Positions 26,992-42,517 of a stretch of 47,449 nt of DNA are shown one piece after another. The DNA is from a virus (taxonomy: Duplodnaviria > Heunggongvirae > Uroviricota > Caudoviricetes), in the IMG/VR virus record IMGVR_UViG_2585427767_000006, one strand, 5' to 3'. The notes under the pieces are model-generated. The model did no database searches, was not told where the DNA came from, and saw nothing but the letters and a program-made list of their open reading frames with translations. The position numbers and the translations under genes are program-made. Each line of letters begins with the position of its first letter. Position 1 is the first letter of the stretch.

Positions 26992-27342
26992 TTAAGGTTG
27001 TGATTCCGGAGGAGTCTTCAGAGAACCAGTAATTCTTCCCGGTAGCTTTCCTTTGTAGGTTATCCATACATTCTGCGCCTCTAAAATTACGGGGCGCTTT
27101 TCCGGCGACTGCTCATCCCCTTCACATAACCCGGCAGCAACATCCAGGAAGACCTGTCTGATGCTCCTTCTGGCTGCTGCCTCATAAAACTCCAGCGCGG
27201 CACCTTCAACACGGTCCAGCGAGATGTCCAGGTCAAAAATTTCACCGTCAAAGCGTTTTTTGTCCCGTAACGCTAAAGTTACCGTAACTTTATTCTCAAA
27301 ATTGCGGATCCCTTTCACAATCAGTTTATAGTTTTGAGTCAT
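26992..27342 (-). CDS. Hypothetical protein between holin and endolysin (YdfR/DUF1327-like)
   Basis: 116-aa ORF starting 5 nt after the holin stop; resemblance to Qin YdfR is from memory only. Confidence 0.45.
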   Translation of the reverse strand: MTQNYKLIVKGIRNFENKVTVTLALRDKKRFDGEIFDLDISLDRVEGAALEFYEAAARRSIRQVFLDVAAGLCEGDEQSPEKRPVILEAQNVWITYKGKLPGRITGSLKTPPESQP

Positions 27343-27346
27343 TGAA

Positions 27347-27553
27347 TTACTCTCCCCGTGCAGCCTTACGACGGTCCTCTCTGATTTTGAAATACAGGTT
27401 AGTCAGATATGTCAGCAGCCCAAACAGCAGACTCCCCAGCACGCCTATTGCCGCCCACTGAGACGGGGAAACCCTGTCCAGCAACTGCAGGAACCAGTAG
27501 CCCGTTCCCACCGCTGACGTGGTGTATGACACACCTGTTGTGATTTTTTCCAT
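27347..27553 (-). CDS. S: Pinholin, S21 type (class II holin)
   Basis: 68-aa product [68 protein letters not shown] closely matches phage 21 S21; upstream in-frame ATG at 27562 would give the antiholin form. Confidence 0.85.
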
Positions 27554-27712
27554 CTGGTACATACCCCGTCTCCCGTTATCCGGAAGCTGACAACAATAAA
27601 AAAAGCCACCAGTTAAGTACTGATGGCTCTGATAACTCATGCAGGCATCTCAGACGACCCACTGACACTACCGGTGAGTTTAACGATACCTTCCATTTGA
27701 CTGGCTCACTTT

Positions 27713-29566
27713 TTATGATGATGCCGGTGCATTTATCTCCAGCACCAGACTTTCTATCTCAACGCCATACGCTGCATTTTTGGTAATATCCGTCAGCGTC
27801 AGCGCATTCAGCCCCAGTGTCAGACTGTCTTTTATGACCTGGAATGCCGGGCCAGCCACTCCATTCAGTTTCGGAGTAACCGTGGCACTGCCGGCGGTGA
27901 ACACCAGCTCCAGCGTCTGCCAGTCGTTACTGTAATTCCCGAACTCGCCCAACTTTGTGTTTCCGGCTTTCTTGTGATGCATCAGATTCAGTTTGCCGTC
28001 TGTGGTCTGGGTGAAGAACGACATCAGGAACGGGTTACCAGTCCCGGTCATCGCCACGACGTCAGGTAACGCTACATCGGTATACAGATAAATTCCCAGA
28101 CCGAACTGGTTGTTGGTCAGTGCGCCTGACAGTCGAAACTTACAGCTCAGTCTGCCACCCCGTGTCAGCAGGGAGACTGCGTCATCCACCGGGCGCGTCA
28201 GGGACCAGGCTTTATTGCTCTGCTTGGTGATCTTAAATACACCATCTGACAACTGAATTCCGCCATTCTTAATGCTCCAGCCCTGCGCAGCAGCATCTCC
28301 GGCTGTCGGCAACAGGGAGATTGTGCGTACGGATGCATCTTCAGACGGCCCCGATGGCGTGTCGCCGCCGGGCGAGGGTTTGATTTCCGGTGCCTTACCA
28401 CTAATGAAGGCTAAGGTGCGACCGGCTACGTTCAGAATAGCAGTTGCCATACGATCGGGAATAATGCCACGACGCGCCCATGAGCTGAAATGCGTCGGGC
28501 GATTTGATGATACCCAGTTTTTGTTCGTTCGGGATGCCGAACCGTAATAACCAGACCCGGCAATATCAGGATCTTCTGACGGGTTGTTTGTCGGTGTATT
28601 AACTCCGCTACCATCGGTCATAAAGGGAACAAAATAAATCTGCTGGGATTCTTTACCTTTATATGCACCATATACCACTTCATATTGCGTACCGTGTTCT
28701 TGTTTCCACGCGTATGTCGTGTCGCCACAAATCCAGGGGACTGATGCCGGACTTCCACCGTGACACTGCGCTGCCAGCCCGGCAAGGTCAGCACGGAACT
28801 GCTGTACCATTGCAAGAAATGCTGCTGGCTGCTGGGCGTAACTGGCATTCGTCATATCGAATTCCCCCTGCATCCAGCATATCGCCAGCAAAACGTTTTT
28901 CGGGTTTTTCTGCAATGCTGCCTTCGTGCGGAAAAGCAGATCCTGATATAACGGCTTACCCACTCCCCAGCGAGCCGAATCCTGACTGGCTCCCGTGGAC
29001 TCGCTGAATGTCCCCTCCGTGCCCTGGGTGAATGCCGAACCACCACGACAGCATGGTACCAGCAGGATCCCCGCATTATTAGGGATATACGGAAGCAGTT
29101 TTTTGGCAATATGTAAGCCCTGTCCGACACAGCCGTACTGCCCTTTGCTCAGGTCAGCCCGGGGATGGTTAATCGTACTCATATCCTGAACATCATGCAG
29201 ACAATGGTCAGCAGGAATGATGTCGTTAAATACGCATACTTCACCACCGGGAGTCACTGTGTTACGACGGGCCAGTTGCTTAATGCGCGGATGGGGCGCA
29301 TCGTATGAATCCGGAAGCGGAAGCCCTTCACCGTAAGCCATGGCATTGGATTGCCCGGCCAGTACGATGACGTAGTACCACTCCGGCTCAGTTGCACCAC
29401 TGACGACCACATCACCTTCTGCTGCAATCGCCTGCATCAGGGTATAAGGGGTTATGGCCACCGGACTACCAAACGGCTGCCAGCCCTCTTTCAGTTTATG
29501 TGTCAGCTTTTCCGCAAGATCTGACGGCGACGCCGCCCTGACAACATCATAGTGTTTAAATGCCAT
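27713..29566 (-). CDS. nanS: Prophage 9-O-acetyl-sialate esterase NanS-p (DUF1737 N-domain plus SASA esterase domain)
   Basis: N-terminus MAFKHYDVVRAASPSDLAEKL and the position directly upstream of the holin match the nanS-p gene of Stx-type phages; start at ATG 29566 (SD GGTGGAAAG) rather than ORF-track 29581. Confidence 0.8.
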   Translation of the reverse strand: MAFKHYDVVRAASPSDLAEKLTHKLKEGWQPFGSPVAITPYTLMQAIAAEGDVVVSGATEPEWYYVIVLAGQSNAMAYGEGLPLPDSYDAPHPRIKQLARRNTVTPGGEVCVFNDIIPADHCLHDVQDMSTINHPRADLSKGQYGCVGQGLHIAKKLLPYIPNNAGILLVPCCRGGSAFTQGTEGTFSESTGASQDSARWGVGKPLYQDLLFRTKAALQKNPKNVLLAICWMQGEFDMTNASYAQQPAAFLAMVQQFRADLAGLAAQCHGGSPASVPWICGDTTYAWKQEHGTQYEVVYGAYKGKESQQIYFVPFMTDGSGVNTPTNNPSEDPDIAGSGYYGSASRTNKNWVSSNRPTHFSSWARRGIIPDRMATAILNVAGRTLAFISGKAPEIKPSPGGDTPSGPSEDASVRTISLLPTAGDAAAQGWSIKNGGIQLSDGVFKITKQSNKAWSLTRPVDDAVSLLTRGGRLSCKFRLSGALTNNQFGLGIYLYTDVALPDVVAMTGTGNPFLMSFFTQTTDGKLNLMHHKKAGNTKLGEFGNYSNDWQTLELVFTAGSATVTPKLNGVAGPAFQVIKDSLTLGLNALTLTDITKNAAYGVEIESLVLEINAPASS

Positions 29567-29826
29567 GGTTCTTTCCACCATCTGAAAAATGATTCTTTAA
29601 AATACCTGACATGTAATACAGAAAAAACACAAAACCATACCTTAAATAAAAACCTCATCATCAAGCAGATATGCATGGATAAACTACAAGACGAGATATA
29701 AACCACCCTGCATTTAAATAAACAATAAACAACATCAGAAAAATAATTCTGCTCTATGGTTTACAATCAAAAATATCATTTATACTTTTCAGAACATCAC
29801 CAGCAAGGCATAAACAAGGAAACTAA

Positions 29827-30162
29827 ATGAAGTGGATTGTGATTGATACAGTTATCCAGCCATCATGCGGAATATCTTTTTCAGTCATATGGAGTAAAAT
29901 AAAATTAATAATCTGGTATCAATCGGATGCTTTCTTACCTCCTGAAAGTATATTTACACTGACTCACACAGGCATCATGCTCAATAACAAAGTGCTACCT
30001 GTAACCATTTACAACGTAGTACCATTCAATAAAACATTCTGGAATTTAATCAAAAACAGCCAGGAATGCCCTACAAATACAGATAACGTATTGAATGAAT
30101 GCTTTAATAACCGTTGCACTCTGCAAATATGTCCTTATGGACTAAAACAACAAAGTCCATAA
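29827..30162 (+). CDS. Hypothetical Cys-rich protein (111 aa) in the stx-slot cargo
   Basis: SD AAGGA 6 nt upstream of ATG; candidate sigma70 promoter TTTACA-N15/17-TATACT upstream; 6 AUA codons; two strong hairpins immediately downstream. Confidence 0.4.
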
Positions 30163-30218
30163 GGAGTTTACTCACATCTGACAAAATCAATATAAACAGC
30201 CCCTCCGGAGAGGGGCTG
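30132..30218. terminator. Tandem hairpins (likely bidirectional terminators) after the plus-strand cargo ORF
   Basis: 12-bp perfect stem TCCTTATGGACT/AGTCCATAAGGA (30132..30165, spanning the stop codon) and 9-bp stem CAGCCCCTC/GAGGGGCTG with 4-nt loop (30197..30218). Confidence 0.5.
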
Positions 30219-30609
30219 GAGAGTGGCGCTATGTGCCATTGCATGGTGCCGGGTGCCTCCCGGTGAATTCAGTACCAGCACCTGAATCCGCGATTATCCC
30301 ATATACCTACTCGCTGATTGCCCCTCCGCACAGGGGGATTCACCATGCCAGTTTCTTTTAACAAACTCCCCGCAAACCAGACAACAATCAACCGCCTGAA
30401 TTGTGAAGTATTTAAAAATTTCTCCCGCTAACTGATACCCGGCTAACAGTCTGGCGTTTTCTTTTTCAGCAACGGGAAAGCAACAACCACCACACCCGCC
30501 ACCAGCACACCGTCAGCCAGCACTGACATTATCCGGCTGCTGCAATGCCATTCACAAAAACAGTAAGCAATCACTTTTTACCGTAACCGGTGATAATCCA
30601 GATATGTAT

Positions 30610-30966
30610 CTACCCCAGATGAGTAATCCGAAGTTCATCCATACCACAGGTCCTGGCTATTCTGTTGTACTCCTGAACAAGAGCAAATAATTCTGAATTA
30701 GCCACCATGAACTCATCGCAAACCCTCTGTATAGCATCACTATTCAGAATAATAACGTCTCTTCCCGAAAGACGATCAGGAGTACAGAACAAAACTGTCA
30801 AACGGCTGAAGGCCTTTGCTCGTGCTGCATTGACTATATCAATACGCTGCCTAAGGATGAAACACCCCGACGCCTCATCAATATTCACTCTACCCACACC
30901 ATATGAATGATAAATATTTAATGCTGAAAAAACCATTAGACCGTATAACAAACACTCAATCAACAC
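30610..30966 (-). CDS. Hypothetical ORF at the position stxA occupies in Stx phages; coding status doubtful
   Basis: 118-aa ORF with GTG start and no convincing SD at either the GTG or the internal ATG (30936); AT-rich. Confidence 0.25.
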   Translation of the reverse strand: MLIECLLYGLMVFSALNIYHSYGVGRVNIDEASGCFILRQRIDIVNAARAKAFSRLTVLFCTPDRLSGRDVIILNSDAIQRVCDEFMVANSELFALVQEYNRIARTCGMDELRITHLG

Positions 30967-31073
30967 TTAACAGAACTTTTATTTTTGACAAACATATAAT
31001 ATTTTCAACAATATCCTGAGCCAGGTATATTTCAGTATAAGGCTCTGCCGGAAGGAATCTGGAAGAATGAATA

Positions 31074-31150
31074 TGGCGCGCTGTACTGGATTCGAACCAG
31101 TGACCGATTGCTTAGAAGGCAATTGCTCTGTCCGGCTGAGCTAACAACGC
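31074..31150 (-). tRNA. tRNA-Arg (anticodon UCU)
   Basis: Minus-strand 77-nt sequence GCGTTGTTAGCTCAGCCGGACAGAGCAATTGCCTTCTAAGCAATCGGTCACTGGTTCGAATCCAGTACAGCGCGCCA folds as a cloverleaf with anticodon loop CUUCUAA and T-loop TTCGAAT. Confidence 0.9.
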
Positions 31151-31250
31151 TGAATACCGATAATGGACCGCCATCGGGGACCCGCCCCCGCACCAACAAC
31201 CCTGTTATCGTGTCGTCTGCTCTTCCTGATAAGCTAATGGCGGTTTGTGA

Positions 31251-31326
31251 TGGTGGCCCTTGCTGGATTTGAACCAGCGACCTGGCGATTATGAGTCGCT
31301 CGCTCTCACCACTGAGCTAAAGGGCC
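31251..31326 (-). tRNA. tRNA-Ile2 (anticodon CAU, ileX/ileZ-like; could alternatively be Met)
   Basis: Minus-strand 76-nt sequence GGCCCTTTAGCTCAGTGGTGAGAGCGAGCGACTCATAATCGCCAGGTCGCTGGTTCAAATCCAGCAAGGGCCACCA; 7-bp acceptor stem, anticodon CAU, very close to E. coli ileX. Confidence 0.85.
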
Positions 31327-31469
31327 GGGAGCAGAATAATAACGGTCCGTAATTAATTCCACAATAAAAAACCCACTCGGCGGCGGGTTGTTGAAACTCT
31401 TCTAACGTCAGGCATAAAAAGCCCATCGTTATGACGAATTTACCACAGATTCCGGAAAAATCAACCTTG
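31327..31469 (-). promoter_or_regulatory. Putative late promoter / Q-utilisation region with terminator-like hairpin downstream of Q
   Basis: Minus strand has TTGATT-N16-TAAATT promoter-like hexamers just after the Q stop and a short GC hairpin followed by UUUUU near 31366..31389; assignment by analogy to lambda, not verified. Confidence 0.3.
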
Positions 31470-32291
31470 TTACCTAGTTACCTTTTTTAACTGCCGCTCA
31501 GCCCATGCTTCTTCAATATCAAACCGGGTCACCAGCGCATCATAGAATTTCTTAACTGTTTTTTCCCATGACGCGCGTGTTATCTGGTTTGTCACCTCGC
31601 ATATAGCATTAAATGCCTCCGTTGATGGTAGTCTTTCATAGCCACGACCACCACAACGCTGGCAGTCTCTGATAACAGGCATACCACGTTTTACCGACTC
31701 TTCACGGTAAAGGGCGACACCACGCCCACGGCAATCCTTACAGGCGGTGGAAACCTCACCCTTTCCGCCACACTCCGGACAGGCAACTTTTACCACCTCC
31801 CTGACTTTTTTCCATTCTTCCCAGTAAGACGGATACACGCCTTTTGTGCACTTTGCCCACACTGGTGGCTTACCATCCGGATACTGGATCTTGTTTGTAA
31901 AAACCTCGCTTTCAATAAATTTTTTTCCGTGACAGCAGGGGCACTGTTTTTTGCTCGCCGCGCTACGGGCATAATCTTCAAACGCATACGAAGCCATAAT
32001 GCGCATCACTACCGGTTTTATTTCTGCCGGAAGTTTTCTCAACGCCGCCACACGATCGCACCGACTGAGTGCATAATCTGCCAGTAATTCTGTTGCCCGC
32101 GCCCTGTCATTCATACTGATGCCCATTTTCCCCAGGAACGCAGAAAACCCCATCTCAGCCCGATTCTGTGTCATGCCCTGCGCGGCCATCACATCAGTGA
32201 TACTCAGCGCATCTTTTGACGTTGAGGCCGATGCATCGGTCAGGCCAGGGGATTTTGGGGAGTAGTATTTCGGTAAATCTTCCAGTTTCAT
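31470..32291 (-). CDS. Q: Late-gene antiterminator Q (zinc-binding Q family)
   Basis: 273-aa protein with multiple CxxC pairs (CPCCHGKK, CPECGGKG, CKDCRGRG, CQRCGGRG); immediately upstream of tRNAs and lysis genes; ATG overlaps the rusA stop. Confidence 0.8.
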   Translation of the reverse strand: MKLEDLPKYYSPKSPGLTDASASTSKDALSITDVMAAQGMTQNRAEMGFSAFLGKMGISMNDRARATELLADYALSRCDRVAALRKLPAEIKPVVMRIMASYAFEDYARSAASKKQCPCCHGKKFIESEVFTNKIQYPDGKPPVWAKCTKGVYPSYWEEWKKVREVVKVACPECGGKGEVSTACKDCRGRGVALYREESVKRGMPVIRDCQRCGGRGYERLPSTEAFNAICEVTNQITRASWEKTVKKFYDALVTRFDIEEAWAERQLKKVTR

Positions 32292-32662
32292 TTTTTGACC
32301 TGCCCTTCAAGCATTATGGGGTAAATCTTCACCCCCAGACGTCCACCAGATACTGGCTGACCACGAACGATATTGATTTCATCAAACTGCTCATCGTCCA
32401 TTAACACTCCCGCATGCGTCAGCGCATCCAGCGGTGCTTTCAGGATATTGTCCAGGTCGCGACGACGCTTATCCGGTGGCTCTGCAATCACCTTTATCGC
32501 CAGCCTTCCGGACAGGCTTAATTTCAGCCGCTGCTGGCGAACAATAAGCGCCACAGCCCGGCGATAACGCTTTCCCTCCTCCGAGATAAAATATGTGCTG
32601 CCACGGCGTCGCCAGTAAGTGTTCACCGTCGGCGGGTAAGGTAAAACCAAATCTATGAGCAT
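32288..32662 (-). CDS. rusA: Holliday junction resolvase RusA
   Basis: 124-aa protein with PPDKRRRDLDNILKAPLDALTHAGVLMDDEQ, the RusA catalytic-Asp signature. Confidence 0.9.
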   Translation of the reverse strand: MLIDLVLPYPPTVNTYWRRRGSTYFISEEGKRYRRAVALIVRQQRLKLSLSGRLAIKVIAEPPDKRRRDLDNILKAPLDALTHAGVLMDDEQFDEINIVRGQPVSGGRLGVKIYPIMLEGQVKK

Positions 32663-32674
32663 CAGTCACCTCTT

Positions 32675-33721
32675 TTACCCAAGCACGCCAGTTGCAAAGG
32701 CGTGATCAAGAAAACGAAAAATTAAATCAACCTGAGAACCATGCTTTTCTTCGAACGCCAGAGGATCCGCATGAAGCTCGTTGTGATGCTCCCGACACAG
32801 CGGTAGCGTGAAAATATCGTGAGATTTTGTCCCCATTCCGCCCTGACCATGACCAATCAGGTGATGGGGATCGTCGGCTGGCTTACCACAACACGCACAC
32901 GGCTGTGTCTTCACCCAGCGTGTGTATTTCTCGTTAACCCAGCGGCGACGTTTAGGTCGTTTCATGAAAGATTCCGGAGACTCAGGATCAACGGCAATGC
33001 TGACCACCGTCTCTTCCTGTGGCGGGGTTTGCTGGTGGGCGGGAGGCAGCGGCGCAAGATTTTTTGTGCGCTGCTTCAGTATGCTGGTGGCGGTCTGCTC
33101 TCCCGGTACGATGTCGCTTTCACGGTACATTGAGCGGATTTTTTCCGCACGCAACCCCAGCGAACGACGTAATACCGCTTCCGGTAGCGCGTCCGCCACC
33201 TGATTGCGGACCGCCCACCAGGATAATTCAGCCAGCGATAATTCCCGTTCCTGCGAGCCATTCATTGCATGGAGTATGACGTCAATCATCCATGCAGACA
33301 GGTTTTGGTGAGCAAGTTGCCCGAGTGATTCGGAGGTCTGGTCGCGCAGCTGGTTGTCGCAGTGCCAGCACAACACCATTGCGCCGGTACCATAACGGTG
33401 AATGACGGTTTCACTGTGGTGATAATCGCCGTGTGGCCACTGGCAGGATTTAACATGGCGCAGTAACCAGTCAGACAATGCGCCAGCGCCACCAGCAGCA
33501 CGAATCACTCGTTCGTCGCTGAAAAATAGCAGTAATGATTTATCCTCCGCCAGCGGCTGGCGAACGGCAGGAACGACCCCGGACGACAGATTACGCATGC
33601 TTTTCGGTTCCGGCTCCACCAGTACCCGGGTATTGTGGAATACCGGCATGGATTCACGGCCCGGCTTAACGATCACCAGCCCGAGTTCCGGTACCAGAAC
33701 AGGTCGAAGTAATACCCGCAC
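32675..33721 (-). CDS. DUF968-family protein with C-terminal HNH-like motif (YdfU-like)
   Basis: 348-aa protein; C-terminus CACCGKPADDPHHLIGHGQGGMGTKSHDIFTLPLCREHHNELH is a Cys/His HNH-like motif. Confidence 0.7.
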   Translation of the reverse strand: MRVLLRPVLVPELGLVIVKPGRESMPVFHNTRVLVEPEPKSMRNLSSGVVPAVRQPLAEDKSLLLFFSDERVIRAAGGAGALSDWLLRHVKSCQWPHGDYHHSETVIHRYGTGAMVLCWHCDNQLRDQTSESLGQLAHQNLSAWMIDVILHAMNGSQERELSLAELSWWAVRNQVADALPEAVLRRSLGLRAEKIRSMYRESDIVPGEQTATSILKQRTKNLAPLPPAHQQTPPQEETVVSIAVDPESPESFMKRPKRRRWVNEKYTRWVKTQPCACCGKPADDPHHLIGHGQGGMGTKSHDIFTLPLCREHHNELHADPLAFEEKHGSQVDLIFRFLDHAFATGVLG

Positions 33722-41984: not shown

Positions 41985-42037
41985 TTTCTGGTGACTTTTG
42001 GCGGTATCAGTTTTACTCCGTGACTGCTCTGCCGCCC
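41985..42037 (+). ncRNA. dicF: DicF small RNA homologue (53 nt), with intrinsic terminator U-tract to ~42042
   Basis: Sequence TTTCTGGTGACTTTTGGCGGTATCAGTTTTACTCCGTGACTGCTCTGCCGCCC followed by TTTTT matches the E. coli Qin DicF sRNA as I recall it (one mismatch). Confidence 0.75.
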
Positions 42038-42325
42038 TTTTTAAAGTGAATTTTGTGATGCGGTGAATGCGGCTGAGCGCACGCGGAACAGTTAAAACCA
42101 AAAACAGTGTTATGGGTGGATTCTCTGTATCCGGCGTTAATTGTTAACTGGTTAACGTCACCTGGAGGCACCAGGCACCGCATCAACAAAGTTCACTTCG
42201 GTGATGAAAGGTAAGAGAAAATGTTGAATGTAGCTATTGAAAACCAGAACGGGTGGAATTATAGTGCACCTGCACCTCATAAAACGGGTGCCGGGCGTGG
42301 AAACCCGAAATCATTCACGGCGCAT

Positions 42326-42348
42326 AACCGCGCTCAGGCGGTTTTTTT
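42326..42348 (+). terminator. Intrinsic terminator between DicF and the Rha gene
   Basis: Stem AACCGC/GCGGTT, loop GCTCAG, followed by TTTTTTT. Confidence 0.6.
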
Positions 42349-42517
42349 ATGCGTTAAGCACAGCCACATTCGCATTATGGTGGGGCGTGCAGGGCAGCCG
42401 CAAGGCTGGCCGGGTTCCGTGATGACCGGTATTTCCACCCCTGTACGTCTCACCACCCTTATGGTCGTGGAAAACCTCGGTGGTGAGTTAATCAAATTCA
42501 TCGCGGAGGCTGCCATC

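Follow-up and report, generated by a model that had tools for sequence, protein, structure and literature searches.

A hairpin-dense segment of a lambdoid prophage is a copy of the known small RNA STnc100 beside a truncated DUF3927 gene

What is encoded by the hairpin-dense segment at positions 30197-30529 of the Caudoviricetes sequence IMGVR_UViG_2585427767_000006 (47,449 nucleotides (nt), the whole of which is called the window here)? An earlier note, made from the sequence alone, described several perfect dyads and two convergent open reading frames (ORFs) of 28 amino acids (aa) in this segment, and proposed a type I toxin locus or, equally, a small RNA (sRNA). The hairpin-rich stretch is a copy of the known prophage sRNA STnc100 lying beside a truncated DUF3927 gene, and it is not a new toxin locus. 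In full, the reading supported here is that the minus strand, which is the late-operon strand of a lambdoid prophage, carries what is left of the 3' part of a DUF3927 gene and, after it, a complete gene for an sRNA of the STnc100 family, and we give this reading a probability of about 0.85. Both components are already catalogued, as Rfam family RF02076 next to a truncated gene of Pfam family PF13064, and the find is in this sense an ordinary one.

The identity of the RNA was established by a covariance-model scan, in which positions 30377..30188 of the minus strand matched RF02076 (STnc100) with 132.4 bits (E = 6.5e-30) over model positions 1-206/206, the curated gathering score of the family being 47 bits. 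The match is found on the minus strand only, with no Rfam match on the plus strand of the segment, and between window positions 27000 and 33000 no other Rfam family, including riboswitches and ribozymes, showed any resemblance at E <= 1. The model boundaries place the sRNA gene at 30188..30377 (minus strand), and the mature RNA probably extends from about 30348 to 30189, a length of about 160 nt. In addition, the published quantitative polymerase chain reaction primers for STnc_100 (PMC12370729) match the window copy exactly at 30328-30347 and 30255-30274. Compared with the family as described (RF02076, "Gammaproteobacterial sRNA STnc100", first listed in Salmonella), the window copy is alike in its helices, the position of its terminator and its prophage setting, and no essential difference was found that would set it apart from the other members; its linker and U-tract are unlike those of other Escherichia coli copies.

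The minimum free energy (MFE) fold of the window RNA reproduces the helices of the family consensus. Reading along the minus strand, the 5' strand of helix P1 (GCAUGGUG, 30341..30348), assigned from the MFE fold and covariation, closes a multi-helix core together with the 3' strand of P1 (CACCAUGC, 30241..30248), which is placed by the MFE fold, the consensus structure and covariation. Within this core lie the P2 hairpin (CCCCCUGUGCGGAGGGG, 30322..30337), which is nearly invariant across genera, a short P3 of 3 bp seen in the RNAalifold consensus of the alignment A1 described below, the P4 hairpin (GGAUUCAG-GUGCUGGUA-CUGAAUUC, 30265..30289), which shows compensatory changes, and the P5 hairpin (CCGGGAGGCACCCGG, 30249..30263). 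A single-stranded linker of 22 nt (AAUGGCACAUAGCGCCACUCUC, 30219..30240) then separates the core from an intrinsic terminator at 30189..30218, composed of CAGCCCCUC-UCCG-GAGGGGCUG and an interrupted U-tract, UUUAUAUU. In the terminator scan the hairpin at 30218-30197 has nine pairs, seven of them G-C, and a loop of 4 nt, and only on the minus strand is it followed by a T-rich tail; read on the plus strand, from the side of the PmrD/IraM-like gene, it is a hairpin without a T-tract.

These elements account for the dyads by which the segment was first described. A direct check of the sequence recovered the pair CAGCCCCTC (start 30197) and GAGGGGCTG (start 30210), which is the terminator hairpin, as well as CCGGG (start 30249) and CCCGG (start 30259), which form P5. 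The pair ATTCAG (start 30267) and CTGAAT (start 30282), which corresponds to P4, is also present, with a spacing of 9 nt and not the 10 nt first given. The sRNA alternative in the earlier note was therefore the correct one, since the dyads are two helices (P4 and P5) and the terminator of a minus-strand sRNA of the STnc100 family. Structure prediction, which had been suggested as a check, showed the 190-nt segment to be more stable than dinucleotide shuffles on both strands (z = -2.26 for the minus strand and -3.20 for the plus strand).

Further support for the fold, and for the strand, was obtained from covariation. Homologous loci were fished with a 19-mer from P5 and came from many genera, including Pantoea, Kosakonia, Enterobacter, Klebsiella, Superficieibacter, Leclercia, Salmonella and Shigella; 18 of the loci were scanned with Rfam, which confirmed 47 STnc100 copies, some of them in tandem. 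When 32 copies, drawn from more than 12 enterobacterial genera, were aligned (A1), RNAalifold gave a consensus with P1, P2, P3, P4 and P5, in which 97.4% of cells pair, compared with 41-46% when the partners are slid by one to three columns. Double-sided (compensatory) changes occur at 14 of the 25 pairs, and no shuffle out of 500 matched any of the observed measures of pairing or covariation. Most of the covariation is held by P1, where four of six pairs have changed on both sides, and by P4, where five of six pairs are compensatory; the P4 pair 132/158 is G-U in 15 of the 32 sequences, which fits transcription of the minus strand. P2 and P5 are nearly invariant in A1, although for P5 this is in part an effect of the fishing, in which the P5 19-mer served as the pattern. 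A tRNA-like cloverleaf was also considered and rejected by eye, as the RNA has no T-loop and five helices.

The same helices decide the fate of the plus-strand ORF at 30345..30431. The translations of this ORF and of its minus-strand counterpart (30443..30529) were exactly as previously quoted, and the motif AGGGGGA was confirmed at 30332, at a suitable distance before the ATG. If the plus strand were protein-coding, through this 28-aa ORF or through the pseudogene placed at 30233..30358 by the Prokaryotic Genome Annotation Pipeline (PGAP), the ribosome-binding motif would be explained, as would the presence of PGAP hypothetical genes on the plus strand over both the window RNA and PasD, a related sRNA of enteropathogenic E. 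coli (EPEC) that is taken up below. However, the supposedly strong Shine-Dalgarno sequence is the antisense of the 5' arm of the conserved P2 hairpin, and the ATG is the complement of a CAU within the covarying 5' strand of P1. This start codon is kept in four of 32 homologues, all of them Escherichia or Shigella copies, and lost in the other 28. Neither the ORF at 30345..30431 nor the PGAP feature at 30233..30358 has a Pfam match, where they overlap the RNA core the plus-strand ORFs differ by insertions and deletions of 1 and 2 nt between the window and the PasD loci, and PGAP itself flags its feature as incomplete or frameshifted. As the ORF is antisense to the sRNA promoter and to P1 and P2, it is judged spurious. 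The plus-strand 28-aa ORF is thus not a gene, the PGAP "hypothetical protein" pseudogene over the RNA is most likely no gene either and an annotation artefact, and coding on the plus strand has next to no probability. PGAP features of this kind, either pseudo or of 132 aa, lie on the plus strand over STnc100 or PasD at window positions 30233-30358 and at positions 2301-2699 of locus L123, and the sRNA itself is unannotated by RefSeq or PGAP in the records read.

On the minus strand, candidate promoter elements stand immediately upstream of P1. These are a putative -35 element, TTGTCT (30379..30384), and a putative extended -10 element, TGtTAAAAG (30355..30363), located 18 nt past the -35 element and 6 nt before P1. 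In an alignment of 10 variants from E. coli, phages and EPEC (A4), TTGnCT and TT.TTAAAA upstream of P1 are invariant, and the TTGTCT of the window aligns with TTGACT upstream of the EPEC genes PasD1 and PasD2. RNA-seq 5' ends of PasD1/2 map onto the first G of P1, which is G30348 in the window, and chromatin immunoprecipitation with exonuclease digestion (ChIP-exo) has placed RpoD at Salmonella STnc100 promoters (PMC10794520). The 32 cross-genus homologues likewise have a -10-like hexamer 4-10 nt ahead of P1, with an upstream TG in 17 of them, which as an uncontrolled comparison is only suggestive of a promoter. The RNA would accordingly have a sigma-70 promoter of its own, with TTGTCT and TGtTAAAAG spaced by 18 nt, and transcription from G30348 or close by would give a transcript of about 160 nt in lysogens.

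Upstream of this promoter lies the minus-strand ORF, which was described earlier as a 28-aa toxin-like peptide. The 28-aa form from the ATG at 30529 does exist, and it extends in frame upstream to a GTG at 30574, so that the full ORF (30443..30574) has 43 aa; PGAP annotates the 43-aa form as WP_000562553.1, and both forms occur in annotation sources. The ORF matches Pfam PF13064 (DUF3927) with 95.6 bits (E = 1.7e-27) over profile positions 7-53/53, the gathering cut-off being 25 bits. Two parts of the original description hold well, as the peptide consists of one hydrophobic helix with a basic (KKK) tail and neither candidate start, GTG or ATG, is served by a good ribosome-binding site. In contrast to full-length DUF3927 relatives, which have 52-57 aa and an extra N-terminal hydrophobic helix in the pattern MTVKLRLAIVVVLLFLVVMVDF-SSRIM-SVLADG..., the window copy shares the SRIM-SVLADGVLVAGVVVVAFPLLKKK segment and lacks the first of the two hydrophobic helices as well as the TerB gene upstream. 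In all 12 full-length E. coli loci read, DUF3927 overlaps this upstream TerB-domain gene by 4 nt. The full-length architecture, with a native start, N-terminal helix, SRIM, second helix and basic tail, is not present in the window, and no TerB gene lies upstream. DNA homology to the full-length loci begins only at 30542, at codon 11 of the 43-aa ORF, the first 11 residues are unrelated, and unrelated DNA upstream of this breakpoint stands in for TerB and the first 24 DUF3927 codons. The window ORF is best taken as a remnant, and it probably has no function of its own. The replacing DNA belongs to an unannotated stretch of about 520 nt on the minus strand (window 30443-31073), which holds an ORF of 118 aa (30610-30966) without a Pfam match.

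The order of the two elements recurs elsewhere. Past the DUF3927 stop codon, the first similarity to the sRNA promoter region is met after 25-35 nt in 12 of 12 full-length E. coli loci, and the mapped PasD 5' ends are 41 nt away in both EPEC loci. DUF3927 is also followed by the sRNA in the window and in one Enterobacter locus, so that in E. coli prophages the two are found travelling as a pair. It is this recurrent adjacency of STnc100/PasD, along with the single hydrophobic helix and KKK tail of the peptide, that could suggest a type I toxin-antitoxin system in which the DUF3927 peptide would act on the membrane as the toxin and the structured RNA beside it would serve as antitoxin. Type I toxins such as Hok, Ldr, TisB, Ibs and Zor are small hydrophobic peptides, often with a charged tail, paired with antitoxin RNAs that are complementary in cis or in trans. 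The window differs from these systems in having no complementary antitoxin RNA, and its ORF belongs, in truncated form, to a family with two helices. ORF and RNA run in the same direction without overlapping, the RNA starting about 95 nt past the ORF stop codon, and sRNA-mRNA duplexes were no better than those of 200 dinucleotide shuffles in the window and in both EPEC loci (fraction of shuffles at least as good, 0.31, 0.42 and 0.71, respectively, with duplexfold on full-length RNAs serving as a crude measure). Similarity to DUF3927 was found in only five of the 123 loci searched, 85 of which have an STnc100 match, and in Stx2 phages the STnc100 RNA comes after stx2B and not after DUF3927. The 4-nt TerB overlap of full-length DUF3927 in the 12 E. 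coli loci is itself unlike the free-standing genes of type I toxins. With the first 24 codons gone, and with them the native start and the first helix as well as the coupling to TerB, the minus ORF is a remnant of a known family, and a type I system at this locus is highly improbable.

Evidence that the STnc100-family RNA is expressed, and of how it may act, comes from its relatives. All 11 STnc100 copies of strain EDL933 are transcribed, one of them being confirmed by northern blot (PMC5331693). PasD1 and PasD2 of EPEC E2348/69 are abundant and give northern bands at the expected size; Hfq-dependent stability is reported for Pas sRNAs, yet the table of the same paper shows little change for pasD1/2 in an hfq mutant (Pearl Mizrahi 2021, PMC8550237). 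The PasD seed UGUGAG, together with the chimeras and partners obtained by RIL-seq (in which interacting RNAs are ligated and then sequenced), maps to the 3' linker segment (PMC8550237), and PasD and STnc100 have been judged to be of common ancestry (Zhu, Shabalina and Storz 2026 bioRxiv). PasD1 and PasD2 occupy the same slot as the window RNA, directly after the DUF3927 gene and before the SASA esterase or holin, and have the promoter, the P1 start and the P2/P4 core in common with it, while the sequence from P5 onward (the 3' part of P5/P1, the linker with the UGUGAG seed, and the terminator) is unrelated. The window RNA is thus not PasD proper, since the alignment shows no near-identity that would include the UGUGAG seed and the terminator. 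A second relative is the copy that follows stx2B in O157:H7, which overlaps the Hfq-bound EcOnc27, or sRNA103, detected by Hfq cross-linking and analysis of cDNA (CRAC) (PMC12711010; Tree 2014, PMC4104026). This Stx2-phage STnc100 copy lies in the same "moron" slot downstream of PR', and differs from the window copy in being about 70% identical over the core, in following stx2B in place of DUF3927 and in having another linker.

The comparison of variants in A4 shows that the promoter and core are common to all of them, whereas the linker and terminator are wholly different from one variant to the next, a pattern which suggests a conserved scaffold with a swappable seed. In phage mEp460_ev081 the same truncated DUF3927 and the same core are found with a different 3' end. 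Given the shared core with its variable 3' linker, and the position of the PasD seed, the linker at 30240-30219 is taken as the pairing region; by analogy, it is the probable target-pairing (seed) region of the window RNA. In the proposed mechanism, the structured core would serve as a stable scaffold, and the variable linker next to the terminator would pair with target mRNAs or sRNAs, probably with Hfq, as extrapolated from PasD1/2 and EcOnc27. During lytic growth, the terminator would be read through by Q-modified polymerase.

The surroundings of the gene bear on whether it might instead act in cis. The sRNA is located in the Q-to-holin "moron" region downstream of PR' of a lambdoid prophage in which the late-operon strand is the minus strand. 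Upstream on this strand are a DUF968 gene (32675-33721), a RusA gene (32288-32662), the Q antiterminator gene (31470-32291), a terminator-like hairpin with a T-tract (31389-31370) that stands 81 nt past the stop codon of Q as a candidate for the tR' of the late promoter, a tRNA gene with a CAT anticodon (31251-31326) and a tRNA-Arg gene with a TCT anticodon (31074-31150). On the other side, the sRNA meets a convergent plus-strand moron gene for a PmrD/IraM-like "anti-adapter" (29827-30162), which directly adjoins the sRNA terminator; beyond it come a SASA sialate esterase gene (27713-29581) and then the holin gene, both on the minus strand. This placement is general, with copies downstream of Q on the same strand in 21 of 21 cases among other loci with a Q match, and upstream of holin on the same strand in 32 of 34 cases among loci with a holin match. 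Lambda 6S RNA and StxS are short terminated PR'-tR' leader transcripts just downstream of Q, which are read through by Q-modified polymerase. The STnc100 gene of the window differs from these in lying about 1.1 kb from Q, past two tRNA genes and a separate candidate tR', which indicates that it has its own promoter and is not a PR' leader; a 6S/StxS-like role is rejected for the window on the grounds of the two tRNA genes and the terminator-like hairpin between Q and the sRNA. The association with tRNA genes was striking in the first Rfam scan, but it was rejected as a defining feature of the family, with a tRNA gene at <=500 nt in only 10 of 137 copies.

A cis-acting role of another kind would make the element a leader or attenuator of the late operon, riboswitch-like or acting in processing or stability, for the esterase and lysis genes that lie downstream. 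The succession of a promoter, a conserved structured domain, a variable linker and a terminator is also that of a terminating riboswitch, and the copies are strictly co-oriented with the late operon, upstream of holin. A switch of this type would be expected to conserve an antiterminator pairing, and none appears to be conserved. By eye, the 3' arm of P2 (GAGGGGC) could pair with the 5' arm of the terminator in E. coli copies, where the terminator resembles P2, but the terminators of Klebsiella, Superficieibacter and Pantoea are unrelated. With this pairing apparently not conserved and no other Rfam match at E <= 1, resemblance to a riboswitch or ribozyme was rejected. In the window, moreover, the gene that comes after the terminator is the PmrD/IraM-like gene on the opposite strand, tandem STnc100 copies each have their own terminator, and PasD accumulates as a discrete abundant RNA with partners in trans. 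In lambda, late genes are driven by a Q-modified polymerase that ignores terminators. A cis-acting leader is therefore improbable, and a free sRNA remains the preferred reading.

Hfq-bound sRNA genes have been described in the moron region downstream of PR', with the anti-sRNAs AgvB and AsxR (RF02702/RF02703) as convergent partners of co-directional sRNAs such as EcOnc27 (Tree 2014, PMC4104026). AgvB and AsxR resemble the window RNA in their moron niche after PR', and differ in their length of 51-60 nt, opposite strand and unrelated sequence, the convergent partner in the window being the PmrD/IraM-like gene. Neither RF02702 nor RF02703 matched window positions 27000-33000 at E <= 1 or any part of the whole window at the gathering score. 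At a distance from the locus, further Rfam matches above the gathering score cluster within 500 nt on the plus strand, namely DicF at 41986-42037 (75.8 bits), isrK at 42272-42348 (67.7 bits) and C4 antisense RNA at 42373-42460 (81.9 bits).

The core of the RNA contains one more predicted element. A strand J, AUCAGCG (30312..30318, minus strand), just 3' of P2/P3, is predicted to pair with the P4 loop, UGCUGGU (30274-30280, minus strand), to form a pseudoknot. Among 100 distinct cores (loci L002-L137), complementarity of 6-10 bp between J and the P4 loop is kept through 91 paired sequence types, and the duplexes formed with a core's own partner have a mean of -7.97 kcal/mol, compared with -4.25 kcal/mol for foreign partners, a difference not reached in any of 20000 permutations. 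As P4 itself covaries, the pairing reflects either a genuine pseudoknot or two conformers that alternate. It is not in the Rfam structure line consulted for RF02076, nor is it mentioned in the 2026 study of Pas and STnc100 (Zhu et al.).

This raises the question of whether the core is more than a scaffold. The pseudoknotted core could itself be the functional unit, with seed pairing secondary or absent, for instance by binding a protein as a decoy or sponge, by binding a ligand or by resisting nucleases. Such a role would fit the way in which P2, P5 and the junctions stay nearly unchanged between Pantoea and Escherichia as the stems covary, the maintenance of the pseudoknot across so many sequence types, the occurrence of two to five tandem copies in 20 of 99 loci, and a 2022 survey that lists no function for the STnc100 family (PMC9029176). 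It fits less well with the behavior of the relatives as ordinary Hfq-associated sRNAs with RIL-seq partners at the 3' linker, or with a hypervariable linker, which suits target diversification; in addition, part of the P5 invariance is a product of the fishing, there is no similarity to a riboswitch or ribozyme family at E <= 1, and no binding partner is known. We consider it unlikely that the core displaces seed pairing in this way. Somewhat less doubtful, and still only a tentative proposal, is that a pseudoknotted multi-helix core, found from Pantoea to Escherichia in the Q-to-holin interval and sometimes in tandem, has a function of its own, with the 3' linker and terminator being swapped to retarget the RNA. 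A core function of this kind, if true, might for example be the binding of a host or phage protein, or nuclease resistance.

Several observations weigh against the preferred reading of the window copy as a typical seed-pairing sRNA. The -10 hexamer TAAAAG is weak, matching at 4/6 positions without the final T, and the promoter assignment therefore rests on conservation and analogy. The U-tract (UUUAUAUU) is interrupted, apparently because the insertion of the PmrD/IraM-like gene abuts the terminator; such a tract is poor for binding to the proximal face of Hfq and perhaps for termination, which makes Hfq binding by the window copy uncertain. No target was predicted inside the window, where the best exact complement of the linker was one 11-mer, with 0.45 expected, a difference without meaning. 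The evidence for transcription comes from relatives, and as the PasD RNAs score only 38-41 bits against the STnc100 model, compared with 132 for the window, carrying their Hfq and seed behavior over to the window copy is an extrapolation. Finally, the conservation of the core goes far beyond what simple pairing would demand of an sRNA, and the core has a covarying pseudoknot, which suggests that it may hold a function beyond that of a scaffold for the seed.

The family to which the window copy belongs is widespread. Of 5426 complete E. coli genomes, 3409 (63%) have a match to the sRNA, with up to 13 matching places per genome, and hundreds of E. coli genomes contain an identical stretch of 1.6 kb. 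The tandem arrays are sometimes interleaved with tRNA genes and isrI-like RNAs, and array or multi-genus loci include L034, L043, L044, L045, L072, L075, L078, L085 and L091. Single-nucleotide polymorphisms (SNPs) in the stx2B-adjacent copy have been reported as predictors of haemolytic uraemic syndrome (PMC12711010).

The question raised by this locus is thereby closed, as the hairpin-dense segment is a catalogued sRNA gene and the toxin-like ORF is a truncated DUF3927 gene. The wider interest lies with the family, in its presence in 63% of complete E. coli genomes, in the copy directly after stx2B and in the disease-predictive SNPs reported there. For this family, the covarying pseudoknot and the arrangement of a conserved core with a swappable linker provide concrete handles for structure-function work.

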